From Candidatus Omnitrophota bacterium (GTDB lineage: Bacteria; Omnitrophota; Gorgyraeia; Gygaellales; Profunditerraquicolaceae), in contig JBFZAN010000053.1 of assembly GCA_041309005.1 (NCBI GenBank), positions 34,252 through 98,251 on the forward strand: a stretch of 64,000 nt of DNA. The letters run 5' to 3'. Positions within the stretch are counted from its first letter, which is position 1; every line of letters starts with the position of its first letter. The position numbers and the translations under genes were made by a program. Positions 17,407-43,874 of this stretch are shown here, in pieces. The notes beneath the pieces are model-generated. The model worked only from the letters and a program-made list of their open reading frames with translations, was not told where the DNA came from and ran no database searches.

Positions 17407-17480
17407 GGGCGGTTAGTTCAGCTGGTTAGAACGTCTCTCTTACACAGAGAAGGTCAGGGGTCCGAATCCTCTACCGCCCA
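17407..17480 (+). tRNA. tRNA-Val (anticodon TAC)
   Basis: Acceptor GGGCGGT/ACCGCCC + A, D-stem GTTC/GAAC, anticodon stem TCTCT/AGAGA with loop CTTACAC, T-arm AGGGG-TCCGAAT-CCTCT. Confidence 0.85.
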
Positions 17481-17817: not shown

Positions 17818-17893
17818 GGGGTCGTAGTGTAGCCCGGTTCAACACGTCGCCCTGTCACGGCGAAGATCGCGGGTTCAAATCCCGTCGACCCCG
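17818..17893 (+). tRNA. tRNA-Asp (anticodon GTC)
   Basis: Acceptor GGGGTCG/CGACCCC + G, D-stem GTGT/ACAC, anticodon stem TCGCC/GGCGA with loop CTGTCAC, T-arm GCGGG-TTCAAAT-CCCGT. Confidence 0.85.
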
Positions 17894-33579: not shown

Positions 33580-34728
33580 ATGGCAAATAAGAAACGCTTA
33601 CTTGCGCTTACGCGGGAACTGATCAGGATAGATTCCCAGAATCCGCCCGGGAACGAATCGCGGATAGCGGCCTTTGTCGGTTCTTATTTGAAAAAACTTG
33701 GGCTAAGGGTAAGGCTGTACGAGTTCGCGAAGAACCGTCCTAATGTCGTGGCGTATCTGGCAGGAAGGAATAAGGGCAGGTCCCTGCTTATCACGCCTCA
33801 TTTAGATACAGTGCCCGCCGGAAAAAGCTGGACGCGCGCTCCTTTCGCCGCGCAGGTACGCGGGGAAAAATTGTACGGCCTAGGCGCCACCGATTGTAAA
33901 GGTAATCTCGCGAGCGCGCTGGAGGCCCTGCGCAGTATTATCGAAGATGGCTTACGGCTGGAGTATACCCTGGTTTTTGCGGCTACCGCTGACGAAGAGA
34001 CAGGCTCCGATCTCGGCTTGATCCCGCTTTTGGACAAAGGGATCCTGACGCCTGATGCGGCGCTGGTCCTGGATTCCGATGATTTTGAGATTATCGTCGC
34101 CCAGAAAGGCCTTCTTCATGTGAAGGTGAAGGTCCGCGGCAAGAGGGCGCACGGAGCGTACCCTTGGCTCGGCGTCAACGCGATCGACGAAATGCTGGCG
34201 ATACTGCAGGCGTTAAAACGTCATGCTTTTGAATATGCGGGAAATAAATATCTTAAGCCTCCCACGGTCAATATAGGGACCATCAGGGGAGGGGACAAGG
34301 TGAATATAGTAGCAGACTGGTGTGAATGCGAATTGGATTTCAGGTTTACTCCCGGAATGTCGGCGAAAGCGATCTTGCGGGTGCTGGAACGCATTGTTCG
34401 TTCACGCGCCGGAAAATTCGAGATCGAGATCGAAGGAAGCCAGAAGCCGTATGTAATAAAAGAGGGACATTCCCTGGTAAAAGATTTGGTAGCCGCAATG
34501 CGCGCGGTCAACGTGCAGGGACGGGTACAGGGTTCGGAAGGCGCAACCACGATAACGTTTTTTCAGGATAAGCATATCCCCGCGGTTGCCACCGGCTTTG
34601 GCTGCGCGGGTTGCGCGCATATCGCGGATGAATATGTCAAGATCGACAGCCTTTACAAAGGGGCCCTTGTCCTGGAAACATTTTTAAAAAACTATACATT
34701 CGGTTCTTATAAAGAAAGAGGTGGGTAA
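33580..34728 (+). CDS. M20-family metallopeptidase (ArgE/DapE-type deacylase)
   Basis: ITPHLDTVP, GATDCKGNLA, ADEETGS motifs of M20 zinc peptidases. Confidence 0.75.
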   Translation: MANKKRLLALTRELIRIDSQNPPGNESRIAAFVGSYLKKLGLRVRLYEFAKNRPNVVAYLAGRNKGRSLLITPHLDTVPAGKSWTRAPFAAQVRGEKLYGLGATDCKGNLASALEALRSIIEDGLRLEYTLVFAATADEETGSDLGLIPLLDKGILTPDAALVLDSDDFEIIVAQKGLLHVKVKVRGKRAHGAYPWLGVNAIDEMLAILQALKRHAFEYAGNKYLKPPTVNIGTIRGGDKVNIVADWCECELDFRFTPGMSAKAILRVLERIVRSRAGKFEIEIEGSQKPYVIKEGHSLVKDLVAAMRAVNVQGRVQGSEGATTITFFQDKHIPAVATGFGCAGCAHIADEYVKIDSLYKGALVLETFLKNYTFGSYKERGG

Positions 34729-35693
34729 TGGAAGGTGTTGCGATCCATAAAAAACCGAGATTAAAAAATCCGTATTTGATCGTCGCCTGGCCGGGTATGG
34801 GAGAGGTGGCGTTCAAGGCAGCGACCTATTTGATAGATACGTTAAAAGCGCAGGAGTTCGCCGAAATGGCCGCACAGGACTTTTTTTATCTGACAGGCAG
34901 TAAAATAGAGGCCGGGGTAGTCAGCCTGCCACAGATGCCCTACAGCAAATTCTATTATTACAAAAATAAAGCGGGCAATAACGATCTGATCATATTTTTA
35001 AGCGATTCGCAGCCGGACCTGGCGAAGGCAGACGAGTATTGCAAGAGGATCATCCACGTGGCCAGGACGTTTAAGGTAAAGATGGTGATCAGCTTTGCCG
35101 CGATGCCGCAGCCCATAGACCATACCCAGCATTCCAATGTATGGTGCGCGGCCACGTCGCCGCAGCTGAATAACTCGCTAAGCAAACACAATGTACAGTT
35201 GCTTGCAGAGGGACAGGTAAGCGGCCTGAACGGCCTTTTTCTCGGGATGGCAAAGAAAGAAGGCTTCCAGGGTTTCTGCCTTTTGGGTGAGATCCCCCTG
35301 TACACCATACAGATAGAAAACCCCAAGGCTTCCCACGCGGTGCTGGAGACGCTGGGCAGGATAATCGATCTCCCGATAGATTTTTCAGGCCTCGCTGAGC
35401 AGGAGCATGGTATGGATGAGCAGATCAATAAACTGCTGGATTTCCTTAAGGTGGGGCCCACGCAAAACCCTATCAGTGAAGACGAGATAGAAAAGATCAA
35501 GAAGTCTTTGAGCCAGCTTACGAAGTTGCCTCTTTCCGTAAAAGAGAAAATCGAAAAGCTTTTTTCGGAAACCAAGACGGACATTTCGAAGGCCCGCCAG
35601 TTAAAAGACGAACTGGATAAATGGAATGTGTATCGGGAATATGAAGACAGGTTCCTGGATTTGTTCAAGAAGCAGAAGGATAAGAATAACTAA
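34728..35693 (+). CDS. PAC2-family protein
   Basis: YLIVAWPGMGEVAFKAATYLID...LSDSQPD...GLNGLFLGMAKKEG pattern of bacterial PAC2 (proteasome-assembly-chaperone-like) family; C-terminal acidic coiled coil. Confidence 0.5.
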   Translation: MEGVAIHKKPRLKNPYLIVAWPGMGEVAFKAATYLIDTLKAQEFAEMAAQDFFYLTGSKIEAGVVSLPQMPYSKFYYYKNKAGNNDLIIFLSDSQPDLAKADEYCKRIIHVARTFKVKMVISFAAMPQPIDHTQHSNVWCAATSPQLNNSLSKHNVQLLAEGQVSGLNGLFLGMAKKEGFQGFCLLGEIPLYTIQIENPKASHAVLETLGRIIDLPIDFSGLAEQEHGMDEQINKLLDFLKVGPTQNPISEDEIEKIKKSLSQLTKLPLSVKEKIEKLFSETKTDISKARQLKDELDKWNVYREYEDRFLDLFKKQKDKNN

Positions 35694-36349: not shown

Positions 36350-37084
36350 ATGAAAAGCAGCGTTTACCAGAGACGGTTTTACAGGCGATGGCAGGGCGCG
36401 CGCGATCTTTACAAGGCGCGCGTGGTAATACAGGAGACCGATCTCTACATACTTACGGACAGGCCTGTTGATCGGGATTTCGTCGGGAAGAGGCTGATGC
36501 GTTACCGCGGTCAGATAGAGCGCTATATCCAGAAGGACCGCCGTTTCCTCGCCAGTCTGAAGCCGATAACGCTCGATTCGGATGGTCCCGCAATCATACG
36601 GCAGATGGGTGAGGCCGCCAAAAAGGCCGGGGTAGGCCCCATGGCGGCGGTCGCAGGCGCTATCGCTGGATTTCTGGGCAGGGACCTTTTACGCAAGGGG
36701 TATACAGAGGTAATTATCGAGAACGGCGGCGATATATTTTTAAAGTCTTCAAAGACCCGCCTGGTAGGGATCTATGCGGGAGCTTCTCCGCTATCGCGCC
36801 GGCTCTCTCTGAAGATACGCCCTGAAGACACGCCGTTAGGCGTATGCGCCTCTTCGGGTACAGTGGGCCATTCTTTAAGTTTTGGCCGCGCCGACAGCGC
36901 GGTGGTCATTTCAAAAAACGCCTCCCTCGCGGACGCGGCAGCTACCGCAACCTGCAATCGCGTCGAAGCGAAAGAAGATATGCAAAAGGCGCTTGATTTC
37001 GCGCGCTCCGTAAAAGGGATTACCGGGGCCGTGGTCGTCATGGGGGAAGCGCTTGCCGCCTGGGGCGCCGTTGAATTGGCATAA
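36350..37084 (+). CDS. conserved hypothetical protein (UPF0280/ApbE-like?)
   Basis: GPMAAVAGAIAGFLGRDL...IIENGGDIFL...GVCASSGTVGHSLSFGRADSAVV. The family assignment is tentative. Confidence 0.4.
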   Translation: MKSSVYQRRFYRRWQGARDLYKARVVIQETDLYILTDRPVDRDFVGKRLMRYRGQIERYIQKDRRFLASLKPITLDSDGPAIIRQMGEAAKKAGVGPMAAVAGAIAGFLGRDLLRKGYTEVIIENGGDIFLKSSKTRLVGIYAGASPLSRRLSLKIRPEDTPLGVCASSGTVGHSLSFGRADSAVVISKNASLADAAATATCNRVEAKEDMQKALDFARSVKGITGAVVVMGEALAAWGAVELA

Positions 37085-37164
37085 AAACATTAAGAATACG
37101 GCCCCAAAGGGGTCTGTATGAAAAAATTTTTTTTAAATCCCCGCGTTCCGTCGATAGAAAATAC

Positions 37165-37193
37165 TTGACAAAACATACAGATGTGATAAAAAA
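37165..37193 (+). promoter_or_regulatory. putative sigma70-like promoter (-35 TTGACA; extended -10 TGaTAAAAA)
   Basis: TTGACA at 37165-37170; TG at 37184-37185 and A/T-rich hexamer 37187-37192, 16-nt spacer; ~100 nt upstream of the ATP-grasp gene. Confidence 0.35.
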
Positions 37194-37269
37194 TAAATAC
37201 AATACGTAAAGACTTAAGAAACTTTTGAGGAGGTAGGTCAGCTAAATTGGAAAAACTAGGTACTATATA

Positions 37270-37298
37270 AAGGCTCTGGGTCAAAAGAGCCTTTTTTT
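37270..37298 (+). terminator. intrinsic-terminator-like hairpin (8-bp stem AAGGCTCT/AGAGCCTT, loop GGGTCAAA, then T7) abutting the start codon at 37299
   Basis: Perfect inverted repeat followed directly by TTTTTTT; located between the putative promoter and the first Ddl-like gene. Confidence 0.5.
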
Positions 37299-38294
37299 AT
37301 GCTTATGGCGAAAACAGTCGGATTAACATACGATTTAAAGACGGATTACGAGTTTAAGGATAGCGATCCTCCTGACGCGAACGCGGAGTTTGATCATCCG
37401 GATACCGTTTCTCTTATTGCTTCAGCCATCGCATCAAGGGGCTTTAAGGTAAAAAGGATCGGTAATGTCTCAAGCCTCCTGGAGAATATCGCGGACCTCA
37501 AGGTAGACATCGTATTCAATATATCCGAAGGCGTCTCCGGCAGGAACCGCGAATCCCAGGTGCCTTTATTGCTGGAAATGGCGGGTATCCCTTTTGTGGG
37601 AGCGGATTCCCTGAGTCTCGGGATCTCTCTGGATAAGCTTATGGCAAAAAAGATCTTTATCGCTGAAAAAATCCCCACCCCCAGATTTATCGAAGTCAAG
37701 GATTCCGCCGCGCTTGACTCAGACCACCTTAAATTCCCCCTGATCGTAAAGCCGCGTTTTGAAGGTTCCTCCAAAGGCTTAAGCGAATCCTCGCGCGTGG
37801 AGAATGCCGAAGAGCTCAAGAAGCAGGTCGAATATATCATCTCTACCTATAAGCAGCCCGCGCTGATAGAAGAATTTATACGGGGGGAAGAGTTCACCGT
37901 CGCGCTTATCGGCAACGAGCCTCCTGAAGTGCTGCCGATAGTCCAGATAAAGATAGACGGAAGACTTAAGCTTAACGATAAGTTCTACACCTTCGGCCAC
38001 ATCAAGGACGATAAATTGGAATATGTGTGTCCCGCGAGGGTCTCTCAGGAGTTAAAGCTTGAAATCGGCGAGCTTGCCCGGCGGACTTTCGAAGCGATCG
38101 AATGCCGCGATTTCGGCAGGGTCGATTTCAGGGTCGATGAAAAAGGCAAGCCCTACGTGCTTGAGATAAACCCCCTGCCTTCCTTGTCGTCGGCAGACGT
38201 ATTTATGGTAGTGGCACATCAGCTAGGGCTTTCGTATGAAGATATCATCGGCAGGATATTGCAGGCTGCCCTTACCAGGTATAATTTGAATTGA
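37299..38294 (+). CDS. D-alanine--D-alanine ligase-family ATP-grasp enzyme (paralogue 1)
   Basis: Ddl-like N-domain (KTVGLTYDL...), central GRNRESQVPLLLEMAGIPFVGADSLSLGISLDKLMAKKIF, ATP-grasp C-domain (EEFIRGEEFTVALI, VDFRVDEKGKPYVLEINPLP). Confidence 0.7.
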   Translation: MLMAKTVGLTYDLKTDYEFKDSDPPDANAEFDHPDTVSLIASAIASRGFKVKRIGNVSSLLENIADLKVDIVFNISEGVSGRNRESQVPLLLEMAGIPFVGADSLSLGISLDKLMAKKIFIAEKIPTPRFIEVKDSAALDSDHLKFPLIVKPRFEGSSKGLSESSRVENAEELKKQVEYIISTYKQPALIEEFIRGEEFTVALIGNEPPEVLPIVQIKIDGRLKLNDKFYTFGHIKDDKLEYVCPARVSQELKLEIGELARRTFEAIECRDFGRVDFRVDEKGKPYVLEINPLPSLSSADVFMVVAHQLGLSYEDIIGRILQAALTRYNLN

Positions 38295-38302
38295 GCGCGA
38301 AT

Positions 38303-39310
38303 ATGAAAATCGCTTTGACGTGCAATCTTAAAAAAGAGGATGATTCAAAACCCCCGGATTATTTTTCAGAATTTGATTCCCAGGAGACCGTAAACGCCAT
38401 CACCTCGGCGCTGGAGACCAAGGGCCACAACGTCGATTTTATCGACGTGGAACAGCCTAACCTCTTTACCTTTTTCAAAAAAAATCGAGTCGATATGGTA
38501 TTCAATATCGCGGAAGGCAAAACCGGCAGGTACCGTGAGTCGGAAGTGCCCGCCATACTCGATTATTTGAATATCCCCTACACCGGCTCCAATACCCTTT
38601 CCTTAGCCGTCGCGTTAAATAAAGCGCTTACCAAAAAAATACTGAAAGCAGAAGGTATTCCCACTCCGGCCTTTCAGATCTTCAGCAAGGGCAACGAAAA
38701 GCTCGATGCGGCCCTGCGTTTTCCTCTTATCGTAAAGCCAAACTATGAAGGCTCCGCAAAGGGCATCAATAAAACCAATGTAGTGCATAGTCCGCGAGAG
38801 CTTTTTGACAAGGTCAGGGAGACCATTGATTTTTACAAGCAGGGGGTACTGGTCGAAGAATTTATCGAAGGCAGGGAATTGACGGTAGGGATATTGGAGA
38901 ATGGCAAAGCACAGGTGCTTCCCATCCTGGAGATAGATTTCTCCACCTGCTCCGGGAGCGGCGAGTATTTTTATTCCTGGCGCATGAAAGAATACCAGGG
39001 CAACGCCGAAATGGGACTGACCCCGACGTTTCACTGCCCTGCCAAGCTGGATGCGGAAACAGAGCGCAAGGTCAAAGAGGCGGCGTTAAAGACGCATAGC
39101 GCGATAGGCTGTCTGGATATTTCCCGCACCGATATACGCTTAAGCAGGGACAATATCCCGTATGTCCTTGAGATAAACCCTTTGCCGGGGCTGGACCCCA
39201 AAGAATCCAATTTTCCGATCATGGCGTACGCGGCGGGCATGACCTACGAAGATCTTATTGAGGGCATATTGTTAAATGCCTATAAAAGGAGGAGTCTGGA
39301 AGATGAATAA
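38303..39310 (+). CDS. D-alanine--D-alanine ligase-family ATP-grasp enzyme (paralogue 2)
   Basis: Same architecture as the upstream gene (MKIALTCNL..., SEVPAILDYLNIPYTGSNTLSLAVALNKALTKKIL, EEFIEGRELTVGIL, ISRTDIRLSRDNIPYVLEINPLPGL); ATG 38303 preferred over the in-frame TTG 38291. Confidence 0.7.
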   Translation: MKIALTCNLKKEDDSKPPDYFSEFDSQETVNAITSALETKGHNVDFIDVEQPNLFTFFKKNRVDMVFNIAEGKTGRYRESEVPAILDYLNIPYTGSNTLSLAVALNKALTKKILKAEGIPTPAFQIFSKGNEKLDAALRFPLIVKPNYEGSAKGINKTNVVHSPRELFDKVRETIDFYKQGVLVEEFIEGRELTVGILENGKAQVLPILEIDFSTCSGSGEYFYSWRMKEYQGNAEMGLTPTFHCPAKLDAETERKVKEAALKTHSAIGCLDISRTDIRLSRDNIPYVLEINPLPGLDPKESNFPIMAYAAGMTYEDLIEGILLNAYKRRSLEDE

Positions 39311-40487
39311 TGCGACAGCAACGGATACCCAGAAGTTGCTCGTAGAAAATACAGCCCCTGCGCGCTCAGGCAGGCGGGCGCCGGATTATCAGCAGATAAG
39401 CCTGTACAAAGACGTCAACCCCCTTGAATGGGAGGATTGGCACTGGCAGATGAAAAACCGCATCACTAAACTCGAACAGATCAGCCAGGTAGTTACGCTC
39501 ACCCCCGAAGAAGAAGAGGGCATAAAGAACGCCAAGGGGAGGATGGCGATGGCGATTACCCCCTATTGGGCGACGATGATTGACCCCGAAGATACAAAAT
39601 GCCCCATACGGCGCCAGGCGATTCCCACCAAATACGAATTTGAAATCGGCCCGTATGAGATGACCGACCCTTGCGCCGAAGACAGGGATTCTCCCGCCGC
39701 GCATTTGGTCCATCGTTATCCCGACAGGGTATTGCTGCTTGCGACCGAGCAGTGCGCGATGTATTGCAGGCACTGCACCAGGAGAAGGCTGGTCGGCAAA
39801 GAAGAGACTACGGAAAAAATACTGAATAAGCTCGATGCGGGGATAGAATATGTCAGGAGCAACAAAAAGGTGCGCGACGTGCTTATTTCCGGAGGAGACC
39901 CCCTTCTTCTTGAAGAAGAAGCCCTGGAGGAGCTGCTTAAGAAGATCCGCGCCATCCCCCATGTGGAGCTCTTGAGGATAGGTACGAGGGCCCCGGTGAC
40001 GTTACCGCAACGGATCACCCCGTCCCTGATCGCGATGCTTAAAGAATACGCGCCGATCTGGATAAGTATACATTTCAATCATCCGAAAGAGATCACCAGG
40101 CGGTGTAAGAGCGCCTGCGAAATGCTCGCCGATGCGGGATTTCCTTTGGGGAGCCAGACAGTGCTCCTGCAGGGGATCAACGACCGGCCTTACGTCATGC
40201 GTAAACTTATGCATGAACTCTTAAAAATCAGGGTCCGCCCCTATTATATCTACCAGTGTGACCCCGTAAAAGGGACCAGCCACTTCCGCACCCAGGTTTC
40301 AGTGGGTATAAACATCATGGAAAGGCTCAGGGGCCACACTTCAGGGTATGCGGTCCCGACATATGTGATTGATGGCCCGGGCGGAGGAGGAAAGATCCCG
40401 GTTGGGCCGAACTATATACTTTCCCTGGCAAAGGGAAAATATGTGCTGCGCAATTATAAAGGCAAGATCTACACCTACCTGGAGTAG
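39303..40487 (+). CDS. KamA-family radical SAM protein (lysine 2,3-aminomutase-like)
   Basis: CAMYCRHCTRRR (CxxxCxxC radical-SAM cluster), VLISGGDPLLL, PLP-binding Lys region ...YYIYQCDPVKGTSHFR typical of KamA/EpmB; AAGGAGG RBS before ATG 39303. Confidence 0.8.
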   Translation: MNNATATDTQKLLVENTAPARSGRRAPDYQQISLYKDVNPLEWEDWHWQMKNRITKLEQISQVVTLTPEEEEGIKNAKGRMAMAITPYWATMIDPEDTKCPIRRQAIPTKYEFEIGPYEMTDPCAEDRDSPAAHLVHRYPDRVLLLATEQCAMYCRHCTRRRLVGKEETTEKILNKLDAGIEYVRSNKKVRDVLISGGDPLLLEEEALEELLKKIRAIPHVELLRIGTRAPVTLPQRITPSLIAMLKEYAPIWISIHFNHPKEITRRCKSACEMLADAGFPLGSQTVLLQGINDRPYVMRKLMHELLKIRVRPYYIYQCDPVKGTSHFRTQVSVGINIMERLRGHTSGYAVPTYVIDGPGGGGKIPVGPNYILSLAKGKYVLRNYKGKIYTYLE

Positions 40488-41918: not shown

Positions 41919-43874
41919 ATGGATGCGAACAATAAAAGGAACATTATTTTATTAGGCCACGCCCAGTCGGGAAAGACTTCCCTTGCGGAAAGCATGTTGT
42001 TTGTCTGCAAGGCCGTCGCAAGAAAGGGCTCGGTTACCGACGGAACAACGGCGAGCGATTATAGCTGGGACGAAATAGAAAGAAAAAGCTCCATAAATTC
42101 CGGGCTCCTTAACTGCGAATACAAGGATACGAAGGTCCAGATCATCGACGCGCCGGGATACGCGGATTTCTTCGGCGAGGTTATTTCCGGCTTACGAGCG
42201 GTAGACGCAGCAGTAATCGTGGTGGACGTAAGCGCCGGGATTGAGGTCGGGACAGAACGCTCCTGGCAGATAACGGAAGATTCTAACCTGCCCTGCATTA
42301 TTTTTATCAATAAAACGGACAAGGATGGCGCGGACGTCAATAAAGTATTGGCGGATATCCAGAGCGTATTTTCCAAAAGGGCGGTGATGATCGGCTCCTT
42401 AGAAGACCCTTCGCTCATAGAAGCGATCGCCGAAAGCGACGACAAGCTCCTGGAAAAATACCTGGAAGGCACACAGCTGTCTGCTGATGAGCTGAAAAAT
42501 GGTTTACATCAGGCAGTGGACAGGCGAAAGGTATTCCCCGTGGTGTGCGGCTCTTCCCTTACCGATAAAGGTATACCGGAATTATTGGAAGAGATCGTAA
42601 CCTATATGCCTTCACCGCTGGAGCGGGAAAAAATCGAGGTGACAAATCCCCTCAAGCCGGATGAGCGCAAAGAGATAGCCTTTCGCCAGGACGGCCCGTT
42701 TGCGGCATTTGTGTTCAAGACGATTTCAGACCCGTATGTCGGCCAGCTTACGCTATTACGCGTGTTCTCCGGCGCGCTGGCGGCGAACACGGGGTTTTTT
42801 AACGTCACCAAAAAAACCAGAGAGAGGATAGGCTCTATTTTTATGCTGCAGGGTAAGGAGCAGCGCTCGGTGGACGCCGCAGCATGCGGGGACATCGTGG
42901 CGATCGCGAAATTAAAAGAAACTGCCACTTCGGATTCGCTCGCGGATGAAAAAGAGCAGGTCCTGTTTGAGCCCATCGTGTTCCCGGAGCCGGCCATATC
43001 CGCATCGGTAAAGCCTAAATCGCGAGCCGACGAAGAGAAGATCTCCAGCGTCCTGGCGAAACTCGCCGATGAAGACCCCACCTTTAAAGCGCACCATGAC
43101 CCTCAGACAAAAGAGCTGATTATTTCGGGGCTCGGAGACTTGCATCTTACGGTGATGGTCGGCAGGATGAAAAAAAGGTTTAATGTCGATGTGGAATTGG
43201 GGACGCCAAAAGTTTCTTACAAGGAGACCATAACCAAAAGCGCCAAGGTCCAGGGTAAATTCAAGCGTCAGTCAGGCGGCCGCGGCCAGTACGGGGACGT
43301 CTGGATCCAGATCGAGCCTATGGAAAAAGGCGCAGGGTTTGAATTTGTGGACAAGATTTTCGGCGGCGCTATCCCCAAGAACTATATCCCTTCGGTAGAA
43401 AAGGGCGTTATCCAGGCAATGGCAGAAGGCGCGGTCGCAGGATATCCTATTGTGGACGTGCGGGTGATCCTCACGGACGGTTCGTATCACGAAGTCGATT
43501 CTTCCGATATGGCGTTCCAGAGAGCAGGTTCCATCGCGCTGCGAAAAGCGGTCACGGAAGCCGGCCCTGCATTGCTTGAGCCGATCATGGATGTCGAGGT
43601 GGCGATCCCTGAAGAATTCCTTGGCGCGATTTCGGGCGATATCAATTCCAGGCGCGGCCGAATTATGGGCATGGATGTAAAAGGGAAGTCGCAGGTGGTA
43701 AAAGCAACTGTCCCGCTGGCCGAAATGTTTACCTATGCCAACGACTTGCGCTCCCTTACCGGCGGCAGGGGCTCCTACGCAATGAAGTTTTCCCGCTACG
43801 AAGAGGCGCCCCACAAAATATCGTCCGTAATCATAAACCACTACCAGGCAACTAAGAAACACGAAGAAGAATAG
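41919..43874 (+). CDS. elongation factor G-family translational GTPase (EF-G paralogue)
   Basis: G1 GHAQSGKTSL, G3 DAPGYADF, G4 NKTDK, then EF-G domains II–V (GDLHLTVMVGRMKKRFNVDVELGTPKVSYKETI...; C-terminal ...RGRIMGMD...). At 651 aa it is shorter than canonical EF-G, and the G-motifs are divergent (canonical AHIDAGKTT / NKMD). Confidence 0.7.
   Translation: MDANNKRNIILLGHAQSGKTSLAESMLFVCKAVARKGSVTDGTTASDYSWDEIERKSSINSGLLNCEYKDTKVQIIDAPGYADFFGEVISGLRAVDAAVIVVDVSAGIEVGTERSWQITEDSNLPCIIFINKTDKDGADVNKVLADIQSVFSKRAVMIGSLEDPSLIEAIAESDDKLLEKYLEGTQLSADELKNGLHQAVDRRKVFPVVCGSSLTDKGIPELLEEIVTYMPSPLEREKIEVTNPLKPDERKEIAFRQDGPFAAFVFKTISDPYVGQLTLLRVFSGALAANTGFFNVTKKTRERIGSIFMLQGKEQRSVDAAACGDIVAIAKLKETATSDSLADEKEQVLFEPIVFPEPAISASVKPKSRADEEKISSVLAKLADEDPTFKAHHDPQTKELIISGLGDLHLTVMVGRMKKRFNVDVELGTPKVSYKETITKSAKVQGKFKRQSGGRGQYGDVWIQIEPMEKGAGFEFVDKIFGGAIPKNYIPSVEKGVIQAMAEGAVAGYPIVDVRVILTDGSYHEVDSSDMAFQRAGSIALRKAVTEAGPALLEPIMDVEVAIPEEFLGAISGDINSRRGRIMGMDVKGKSQVVKATVPLAEMFTYANDLRSLTGGRGSYAMKFSRYEEAPHKISSVIINHYQATKKHEEE

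Follow-up and report, generated by a model that had tools for sequence, protein, structure and literature searches.

We analyzed a 64,000-nucleotide (nt) stretch of contig JBFZAN010000053.1 from a Candidatus Omnitrophota bacterium (hereafter, the window; positions are counted from its first letter). Based on the window sequence, a leader of about 100 nt, composed of a promoter, a Shine-Dalgarno (SD) sequence with a very short open reading frame (ORF; hereafter, the mini-ORF), and a terminator, precedes an operon of two ATP-grasp genes and a lysine 2,3-aminomutase gene. The leader is likely to be a cis-acting transcription attenuator of this operon, and it is about an even call, although the reading that we favor, that attenuation would depend on a ribosome placed on the mini-ORF. 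The leader and the operon contain the following features:

37165–37170, plus strand: -35 hexamer TTGACA, read from the sequence and found by a promoter scan; cTTGACA lies at the same position throughout the core clade
37184–37192, plus strand: extended -10 element, TG (37184–37185) then TAAAAA (37187–37192), with a 16-nt spacer from the -35 hexamer
37199–37268, plus strand: predicted 5′ part of the leader transcript, unstructured and purine/A-rich according to RNAalifold and a single-sequence fold
37227–37233, plus strand: SD-like GAGGAGG, 13 nt upstream of the mini-ORF start
37247–37270, plus strand: putative mini-ORF TTG GAA AAA CTA GGT ACT ATA TAA (MEKLGTI*), translated from the sequence
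37269–37294, plus strand: intrinsic-terminator hairpin AAAGGCTCT / loop GGGTCAAA / AGAGCCTTT, with a 9-bp stem (4 GC pairs), an 8-nt loop, and about -12.7 kcal/mol
37292–37298, plus strand: T7 tract of the terminator, read from the sequence; a T-run follows the stem in all relatives
37299–38294, plus strand: first ATP-grasp (D-Ala-D-Ala-ligase-like) gene (Pfam PF07478), with no SD
38291–39310, plus strand: second ATP-grasp ligase paralogue, same operon (synteny)
39276–40487, plus strand: lysine 2,3-aminomutase (AblA/KamA type, radical-SAM), same operon (TIGR03820, PDB 2A5H, synteny)

The TTGACA/extended -10 promoter at 37165–37192 had been noticed in an earlier, sequence-only reading of this DNA; it is present in the sequence and was listed independently by a promoter/terminator scan (10 of 12 consensus matches). 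Transcription is predicted to start at about 37199–37201, and the leader region is AT-rich (GC content 0.40–0.46, compared to about 0.52 in the flanks). The same scan ranked the hairpin as the top terminator-like site in the window, and under stricter rules it was one of only two convincing intergenic coding-strand terminators in 64 kb. That reading had described the hairpin as an 8-bp stem with a T7 tract abutting the ATG of the first ATP-grasp gene; hairpin and tract are both present, but the stem is 9 bp long, with one extra A-T pair. It had further placed an SD-less start codon at the very next base. There is an ATG at 37299 without a purine-rich SD in front of it; however, most orthologues of the gene are 329 amino acids long, begin with MK(T/I)(V/I)GLT, and align to the second ATG at 37305 (MAKTVG...), so that the true start is probably 37305, 6 nt past the T-run and not flush with it. 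The missing SD is true of this gene but is weak evidence: many genes in the window have none, and orthologues that lie 40–160 nt from the terminator are usually without a clear SD. As for function, a small RNA (sRNA) or a leader requiring read-through had been offered without a mechanism, and the SD and mini-ORF, whose stop codon (37268–37270) overlaps the first bases of the terminator stem in the window, had been missed. The leader option held up, because the unit is conserved before the same operon across Omnitrophota, and the conserved SD and mini-ORF point to ribosome dependence, not to a riboswitch.

Conservation was assessed using 80 genomic loci that carry orthologues of the first ATP-grasp gene (43–77% identity), or 81 sources with the window, and a covariance model (R1) built from 39 upstream sequences. 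R1 matched 64 of the 81 sources, with one match each, on the plus strand and just upstream of the ATP-grasp orthologue. The linkage to the operon is exclusive: R1 found no second copy in 681 kb, the rest of the window included, and in about 1.3 Mb of searched sequence the leader was found at this operon only. The shared layout reads cTTGACA-N16/17-TGnTAAAAA, about 45–60 nt, GGAGG, 12–14 nt, AAATTGRAAAA, about 15–20 variable nt, the hairpin with its T-run, and the gene, and several further members of the L049–L059 clade have the same layout by eye with R1 scores below threshold. The promoter portion (TTGACA-N16/17-TGnTAAAAA) was found again in most core-clade loci, and its distance to the mini-ORF start varies freely among relatives (39–96 nt). 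A pattern scan of metagenome contigs (GGAGG-N9-12-AAATTGGAAAAA) returned at least 120 matches, mostly chance hits in unrelated metagenomes and weakly informative about other contexts; L177 (R1 107 bits), the sole genuine instance among the matches listed, precedes the same operon. All named homologues of the first ATP-grasp gene are labelled Candidatus Omnitrophota. Taken together with the covariation described below, conservation in 64 relatives rules out chance as the origin of the leader.

The terminator is the best-supported part of this layout. In a model-based alignment of 64 sequences, 9 of 9 stem pairs show compensatory (double) substitutions and 91.7% of cells hold standard pairs, values reached by 0 of 500 shuffles; pairing fell to 28–68% when the partner columns were slid. 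Stem sequences differ among relatives (GGCUC/GAGCC; GAGACAC/GUGUCUC; GAAGGGACUUC/GAAGUCCCUUC; GAGGC/GCCUC; GGGACC/GGUCCC), and all relatives form a hairpin (-8 to -19 kcal/mol) with a U-run behind it. Judged by stem-loop, U-tract, and covariation, the hairpin is a real intrinsic terminator. Its distance to the gene varies freely (8–457 nt) and is only 8–13 nt in about half of the lineages; such a gap leaves no room for a second promoter, so the operon must be transcribed through the terminator in these lineages. We also considered whether the first gene has its own internal promoter or is leaderless and rejected this, since no -35/-10 pair fits between the conserved box (GGAGG to AAATTGRAAAA) and the ATG. 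The leader of the L049–L059 clade lacks its own promoter and lies between two co-directional genes, directly after a membrane-protein gene, an arrangement that looks like an intra-operon attenuator.

These properties bear on the possibility that the unit is an independent sRNA or micropeptide gene that is syntenic by chance and whose transcript of about 100 nt is itself the product. An element that never occurs away from the operon in the sequence searched, that lacks its own promoter in one clade, and that lies across the only transcription route into the operon in about half of the lineages is hard to reconcile with such a gene, even though the strong conserved promoter, the defined terminator, and the length would suit it. 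In addition, nothing structural besides the terminator is conserved, and the peptide is unconserved and can be a bare start-stop. We consider this explanation quite unlikely.

An NTG start codon is present in 64 of 64 leaders. At the aligned triplet, which could be scored in 61 leaders, TTG (54) prevails over GTG (3), ATG (3), and CTG (1), with the first base alone varying and TG invariant, which is the pattern of a start codon. The other three leaders (L043, L045, and L077) are without the conserved box and instead carry GAGGA-AAA-ATG AAG TTT TAA. A GGAGG-like pentamer was identified in 58 of the 61 scored leaders and, as GAGGA, by eye in these three loci (61 of 64 in total). The spacing from SD to start is mostly 12–16 nt (mode 13), whereas SDs are present in a minority of the window genes and stand there at 5–9 nt. 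From the start codon to the stem, the spacing is 20–28 nt (mode 22; 22 nt in the window). Both lengths are thus constrained despite the divergent sequence in between. By contrast with this placement, the mini-ORF ranges from 1 to 42 codons and its peptide is not conserved: 13 leaders encode MEK*, MKK*, or MKN*, 10 have a seven-codon mini-ORF that ends at the stem foot as in the window, three have a bare start-stop (NTG TAA), and about 20 read into or through the hairpin. Codon 2 is GAA in 27 and AAA in 19 of 61 leaders, and codon 3 is AAA in 33 of 61, preferences that are inseparable from general A-richness; three leaders are start-stop. These results point to a ribosome landing site as the conserved core of the leader, and it would be the placement of the ribosome that is conserved, not a peptide product. 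An SD, a start codon, and a putatively translated ORF upstream of the terminator are also what characterizes the leader ORF of ribosome-mediated attenuators.

The same box could in principle attract something other than a ribosome. Under factor-dependent attenuation, an RNA-binding protein or small RNA would bind GGAGG-N13-AAAUUGRAAAA and steer termination 22 nt downstream, with the start codon being incidental. Conservation of the box at the nucleotide level, its lack of structure, and its fixed spacing to the hairpin would suit a bound factor too, and no RNA-only switch is detectable; however, the exchange of T, G, A, and C at the first NTG base only, and the replacement of the box by an SD and ATG AAG TTT TAA in three loci, are what a start codon predicts and not what a protein site predicts. 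No conserved candidate regulator gene lies beside the leader, where synteny shows enzymes only. The second GGA is lost in about 40% of members (GAA to AAA), which is against a CsrA-type GGA pair, and a CsrA-type double site was rejected for this reason; a T-box-like UGGN was likewise ruled out, the second GGA frequently changing from GAA to AAA. Factor-dependent attenuation is therefore given a low probability here.

We next consider whether the leader contains RNA structure other than the terminator. Rfam 15, searched with the whole window at the gathering threshold, returned three transfer RNAs (tRNAs) only, none of them at the leader, and a local search at E <= 10 gave sub-threshold noise only (Trp_leader_2 with 17 bits vs 100, Atu_C8, L10_leader, and Histone3). 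The covariance-model search that the sequence-only reading had suggested thus met no known family in Rfam. The single-sequence fold of the window leader has a z of -1.56, mostly from the terminator hairpin, and a window-specific helix in this fold was rejected as not conserved. On the raw MAFFT alignment, in which the stems are out of register, RNAalifold came out blank, and the structure tests use a covariance-model realignment. With the leader alignment, RNAalifold predicted the terminator as the sole helix and none upstream of it; with alignments cut before or within the terminator, it predicted no helix. A co-evolving antiterminator was not found when duplex energies of leaders with their own and with swapped-clade terminator arms, and of shuffled leaders, were compared (5′ arm: mean z 0.02, own pairings no better than swapped). 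Sequestration of the gene start codon was not supported either, with no consistent pairing in 37 leaders folded singly with the gene start. Upstream of the terminator, the leader is best viewed as open RNA rich in A and G.

No conserved alternative fold exists, then, to compete with the terminator. A metabolite riboswitch (e.g., for lysine or beta-lysine) with a terminator expression platform would share with this locus a 5′ leader that ends in a terminator before an amino-acid-converting operon, but it would have to be built from about 70 nt of A/G-rich, unstructured RNA in which there is no helix, covariation, or antiterminator, and no Rfam family appears even at E <= 10. With neither a covarying aptamer nor a known family, the leader is not classed as a riboswitch on sequence grounds, and we consider this explanation very improbable. 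Mutually exclusive antiterminator and terminator folds are likewise missing from the predictions, so that among attenuators the element fits only the occlusion subtype (pyrBI/pyrE-like, see below). The lack of any helix besides the terminator and of a co-evolving antiterminator fits direct occlusion, not an RNA switch, and because the terminator has no RNA alternative and a ribosome site stands at a fixed distance from it, occlusion by the ribosome is the most economical model.

Under this ribosome-occlusion model, a near-consensus sigma-70 promoter (TTGACA-16-TGnTAAAAA) would start the RNA at about 37200. The first ~70 nt would stay unstructured and present a strong SD (GAGGAGG) and, 13 nt on, a weak TTG that opens the tiny ORF. 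By default, polymerase would terminate at the T7 tract, leaving an RNA of about 100 nt and the operon off. If a ribosome were loaded on the mini-ORF in time, its leading edge (about +16 from the P-site codon) would lie at or inside the 5′ arm of the hairpin; a 30S toeprint at +16 is documented for the upstream ORF (uORF) of vmlR (PMC9226507). The hairpin would then be kept from closing in the RNA exit channel, and read-through would allow the SD-less first gene to be transcribed. For a ribosome on a three-codon ORF whose stop codon occupies the A site, protection would extend to about +22, the first stem base; in seven-codon ORFs, the ribosome would cover the whole 5′ arm, as would a terminating ribosome in the window, where the stop codon overlaps the stem; and in longer ORFs, ribosomes would run through the hairpin. 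If ribosome occupancy sets read-through, the sensed signal may be initiation capacity, stalling at the start codon, or the supply of lysyl-tRNA through the common AAA codons. The near-universal weak TTG and the long SD spacing suggest that loading is the limiting step and would therefore respond to the capacity for initiation or to stalling of an initiating ribosome. A Lys AAA codon at position 2 or 3 before a lysine-consuming operon is suggestive, although inseparable from A-richness. Tentatively, and with some doubt, the idea can be extended: a ribosome parked on a minimal ORF might act as a steric antiterminator without any alternative fold, a ruler of about 22 nt setting its mRNA-entry face against the 5′ base of the terminator and so blocking closure of the hairpin. 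Throughout the phylum, this device would sense whether ribosomes or initiation factors are available, or lysyl-tRNA through the AAA codon, and would gate the conversion of lysine to beta-lysine products.

Another arrangement would involve no switch at all. In this case, a constitutively leaky terminator would damp the promoter or insulate the operon, and the mini-ORF would load or reinitiate ribosomes or protect the mRNA 5′ end. The promoterless leader of the L049–L059 clade, between co-directional genes, is in line with this view. So is the first gene, which has no SD in nearly all lineages, but SD-less genes are common in the genome, and most orthologues distant from the leader have no clear SD either, which makes a special loading device unnecessary. 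In three separate lineages (the L001/L002/L006 group, L037/L039, and L035), mini-ORFs cross the hairpin and end in an ATGA overlap with the gene start; such overlaps, however, should arise in about one in three read-through frames, since the gene usually has AAA as its second codon, and most mini-ORFs stop 35–50 nt short of the gene, from which a stable hairpin separates them. A passive terminator would also leave the start-to-stem spacing unexplained. We regard a leaky terminator without a switch as unlikely.

Several points weigh against the ribosome-occlusion model that we favor. Its main weakness lies in the start-stop leaders, which would leave the ribosome 6–8 nt short of the stem. More generally, about a third of the leaders have ORFs of 1–3 codons, and with three codons the ribosome would merely abut the stem, so that masking of the 5′ arm alone cannot account for all leaders. 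The 13-nt spacing from SD to start exceeds the 5–9 nt at window genes, and initiation may be poor. Mini-ORF attenuators of the vmlR type rely on antiterminator and anti-antiterminator helices, of which this leader has none, and a protein could just as well bind the conserved single-stranded box. Finally, the sequences are related to one another, and the counts given above are not independent events.

The order of parts in the leader is that of the trp, his, leu, and thr attenuators, in which a promoter, a translated leader ORF, and a terminator precede a biosynthetic operon and the position of the ribosome decides termination. In contrast to those systems, the Omnitrophota leader lacks a series of regulatory codons, a conserved peptide, and a 2:3 antiterminator; AAA (Lys) often occupies codon 2 or 3, though not in every leader. 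In Escherichia coli pyrBI and pyrE (rph-pyrE), a ribosome that translates up to the terminator blocks the hairpin without any antiterminator, and the position of the ORF stop codon decides read-through (the rph-1 effect). An intrinsic terminator before the structural gene and the lack of an antiterminator helix are common to these leaders and the one described here. The differences concern the ORF and the signal: pyrBI/pyrE have long leader ORFs (44 codons, or the end of rph) that invariably extend to the hairpin, and their signal is UTP-dependent polymerase pausing, whereas the Omnitrophota ORF has 1–42 codons, often ends before the stem, and starts with TTG 13 nt after the SD, with no evident U-rich pause region tied to nucleotide pools.

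Three-codon regulatory uORFs have a precedent in the Bacillus subtilis vmlR leader (ARE-ABCF), in which an SD and the uORF MIN (natural variants MDN, MDK, and MRK) are followed by an intrinsic terminator, peptide identity matters little, and the initiating or stalled ribosome is the signal (PMC9226507). These peptides resemble the MEK, MKK, MKN, and MDK of the Omnitrophota leaders. However, vmlR needs anti-antiterminator, antiterminator, and SD-sequestering hairpins together with NusG pauses (PMC9226507), and no such helices are conserved in the Omnitrophota leader, which furthermore controls amino-acid-modifying enzymes (two Ddl-like ATP-grasp ligases and AblA), not a resistance ABCF; it is not an antibiotic-sensing leader of the vmlR/lmo0919 type. 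A uORF-dependent attenuation was also described for a DUF1127 gene of Sinorhizobium meliloti, with a model based on C-rich codon accessibility and pairing of the ribosome-binding site (PMC12218461), whereas the Omnitrophota leader is A/G-rich and unstructured and ends in a canonical hairpin with a U-tract. A search of Rfam and the literature found no family or paper describing this leader. It belongs with the ribosome-mediated attenuators and is most likely a not-yet-described variant.

Omnitrophota are almost entirely uncultivated, and the Rfam and literature search found no cis-regulatory RNA specific to them. What is conserved in the present leader is neither an RNA fold nor a peptide but the ribosome landing site and its distance to the terminator. 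If occlusion is true, an SD, a start codon, a 22-nt ruler, and a hairpin would make a minimal attenuator design that is reusable in synthetic biology. The leader also marks the ATP-grasp/ATP-grasp/AblA operon as tightly regulated and gives a lead to a beta-lysine-derived product of these nanobacteria.

The KamA-family protein encoded by the third gene of the operon passes the AblA equivalog TIGR03820 (526.9 bits against a cutoff of 525.4) and aligns to the Clostridium lysine 2,3-aminomutase PDB 2A5H with E = 9e-144. The residues aligned to D293 and D330, which we take to bind the lysine side chain in that enzyme, are both Asp. Most likely, judging by these homologies, the operon converts lysine to beta-lysine and ligates beta-lysine to something. 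The genes upstream (an M20 peptidase, a PAC2-family protein, a HAD hydrolase, and a PRK04334-family protein that ends at 37084) are all on the plus strand, and an omptin-like protein, EF-G, YchF, and PurH follow KamA. Synteny is strong across loci, with M20-PAC2-HAD-PRK04334 upstream and AG1-AG2-AblA-(omptin)-EF-G downstream. The longest HAD ORF (start 35626) overlaps the end of the PAC2 gene (34728–35693) by 68 nt. Because the HAD domain match does not start until residue 38, translation probably begins at a more downstream site. The EF-G gene (41919–43874), which in most loci is syntenic on the downstream side of the operon, encodes 651 amino acids only and matches EF-G models in two stretches, suggesting that the G′ region is shortened. 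A link to a translation factor through this EF-G-like gene was discarded: it passes EF-G cutoffs and not Tet(M) cutoffs, scoring as an ordinary EF-G and not a Tet(M)-type protein, and its synteny is probably housekeeping.

The promoter region carries additional conserved motifs. At 37173–37207, and at the same place in L007, L013, L029, and others, the promoter spacer contains a palindrome (ACATacagATGT in the window; ACAATATATTGT in most relatives), and a third half-site, ACAATAT(T), follows the -10 element, so that ATATTGT-N19-ACAATAT flanks the -10 on both sides. This palindrome looks like a candidate operator for a dimeric repressor over the core promoter, which would add a second layer of control to the leader. 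A box (CCGTCGATAGAAAA) at 37148–37161 recurs 5–45 nt upstream of the -35 hexamer in most loci, in either orientation (TTTCTCGTCGG / CCGACGAGAGAAAA) depending on the lineage, and may be a transcription-factor binding site. Given the operator-like symmetry and the conserved box upstream of the -35 hexamer, transcription initiation is probably regulated too. Two minus-strand ORFs that overlap this region (37090–37284 and 37038–37202) are unlikely to be genes, with frequent indels in the alignments that are not multiples of three. Further upstream, the sequence-only reading had seen a possible terminator of the preceding gene at 37104–37118. The inverted repeat in question, GGCCCCAAAGGGGTC, lies at 37100–37114, and we do not regard it as a terminator. 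Its form is not canonical, with TGTATG between it and A6T8 and the T-run starting 14 nt after the stem, and it is not conserved: the nearest relatives (L001, L002, and L006) are without the hairpin, although an A/T palindrome persists in some.

Among core-clade loci, the 5′ arm and loop of the terminator read GCUCUUUAA(C)A in L015, L012, L013, L018, L024, and L026 (L015: GGGCUCUUUAACAGAAC), resembling boxA, the element that NusB-S10 binds during antitermination in rrn and lambda. This boxA-like sequence is missing from clades whose stems have other sequences, and the window has only GCUCU. In some loci (L009, L010, L034, and L036), insertions of 60–160 nt lie between the terminator and the gene and hold short direct repeats (gcataacttatg in L009/L010; aattcgtgt in L036) or extra hairpins; these may be small mobile or repeat elements. 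Five loci of distant lineages (L069, L072, L073, L076, and L079) have neither the leader nor the second ATP-grasp gene and share a different upstream motif, ATAGCATTTTGGCGTATTTTTGATAAATTG, about 20–60 nt before the ATP-grasp gene, whose TGGC-N8-TTGA spacing is reminiscent of a sigma-54 -24/-12 promoter. Two lineages have a gene for a 93-amino-acid protein inserted just before the ATP-grasp gene: in L053 (3641–3922), it lies between the leader and the ATP-grasp gene, and in L065 (3732–3962), no leader was detected. The protein has no homologue in the window or the other loci, and by eye it looks like a DUF2089-like protein with a zinc ribbon and a helix-turn-helix. The three tRNA genes of the window are located on the plus strand at 1906–1977, 17407–17480, and 17818–17893.

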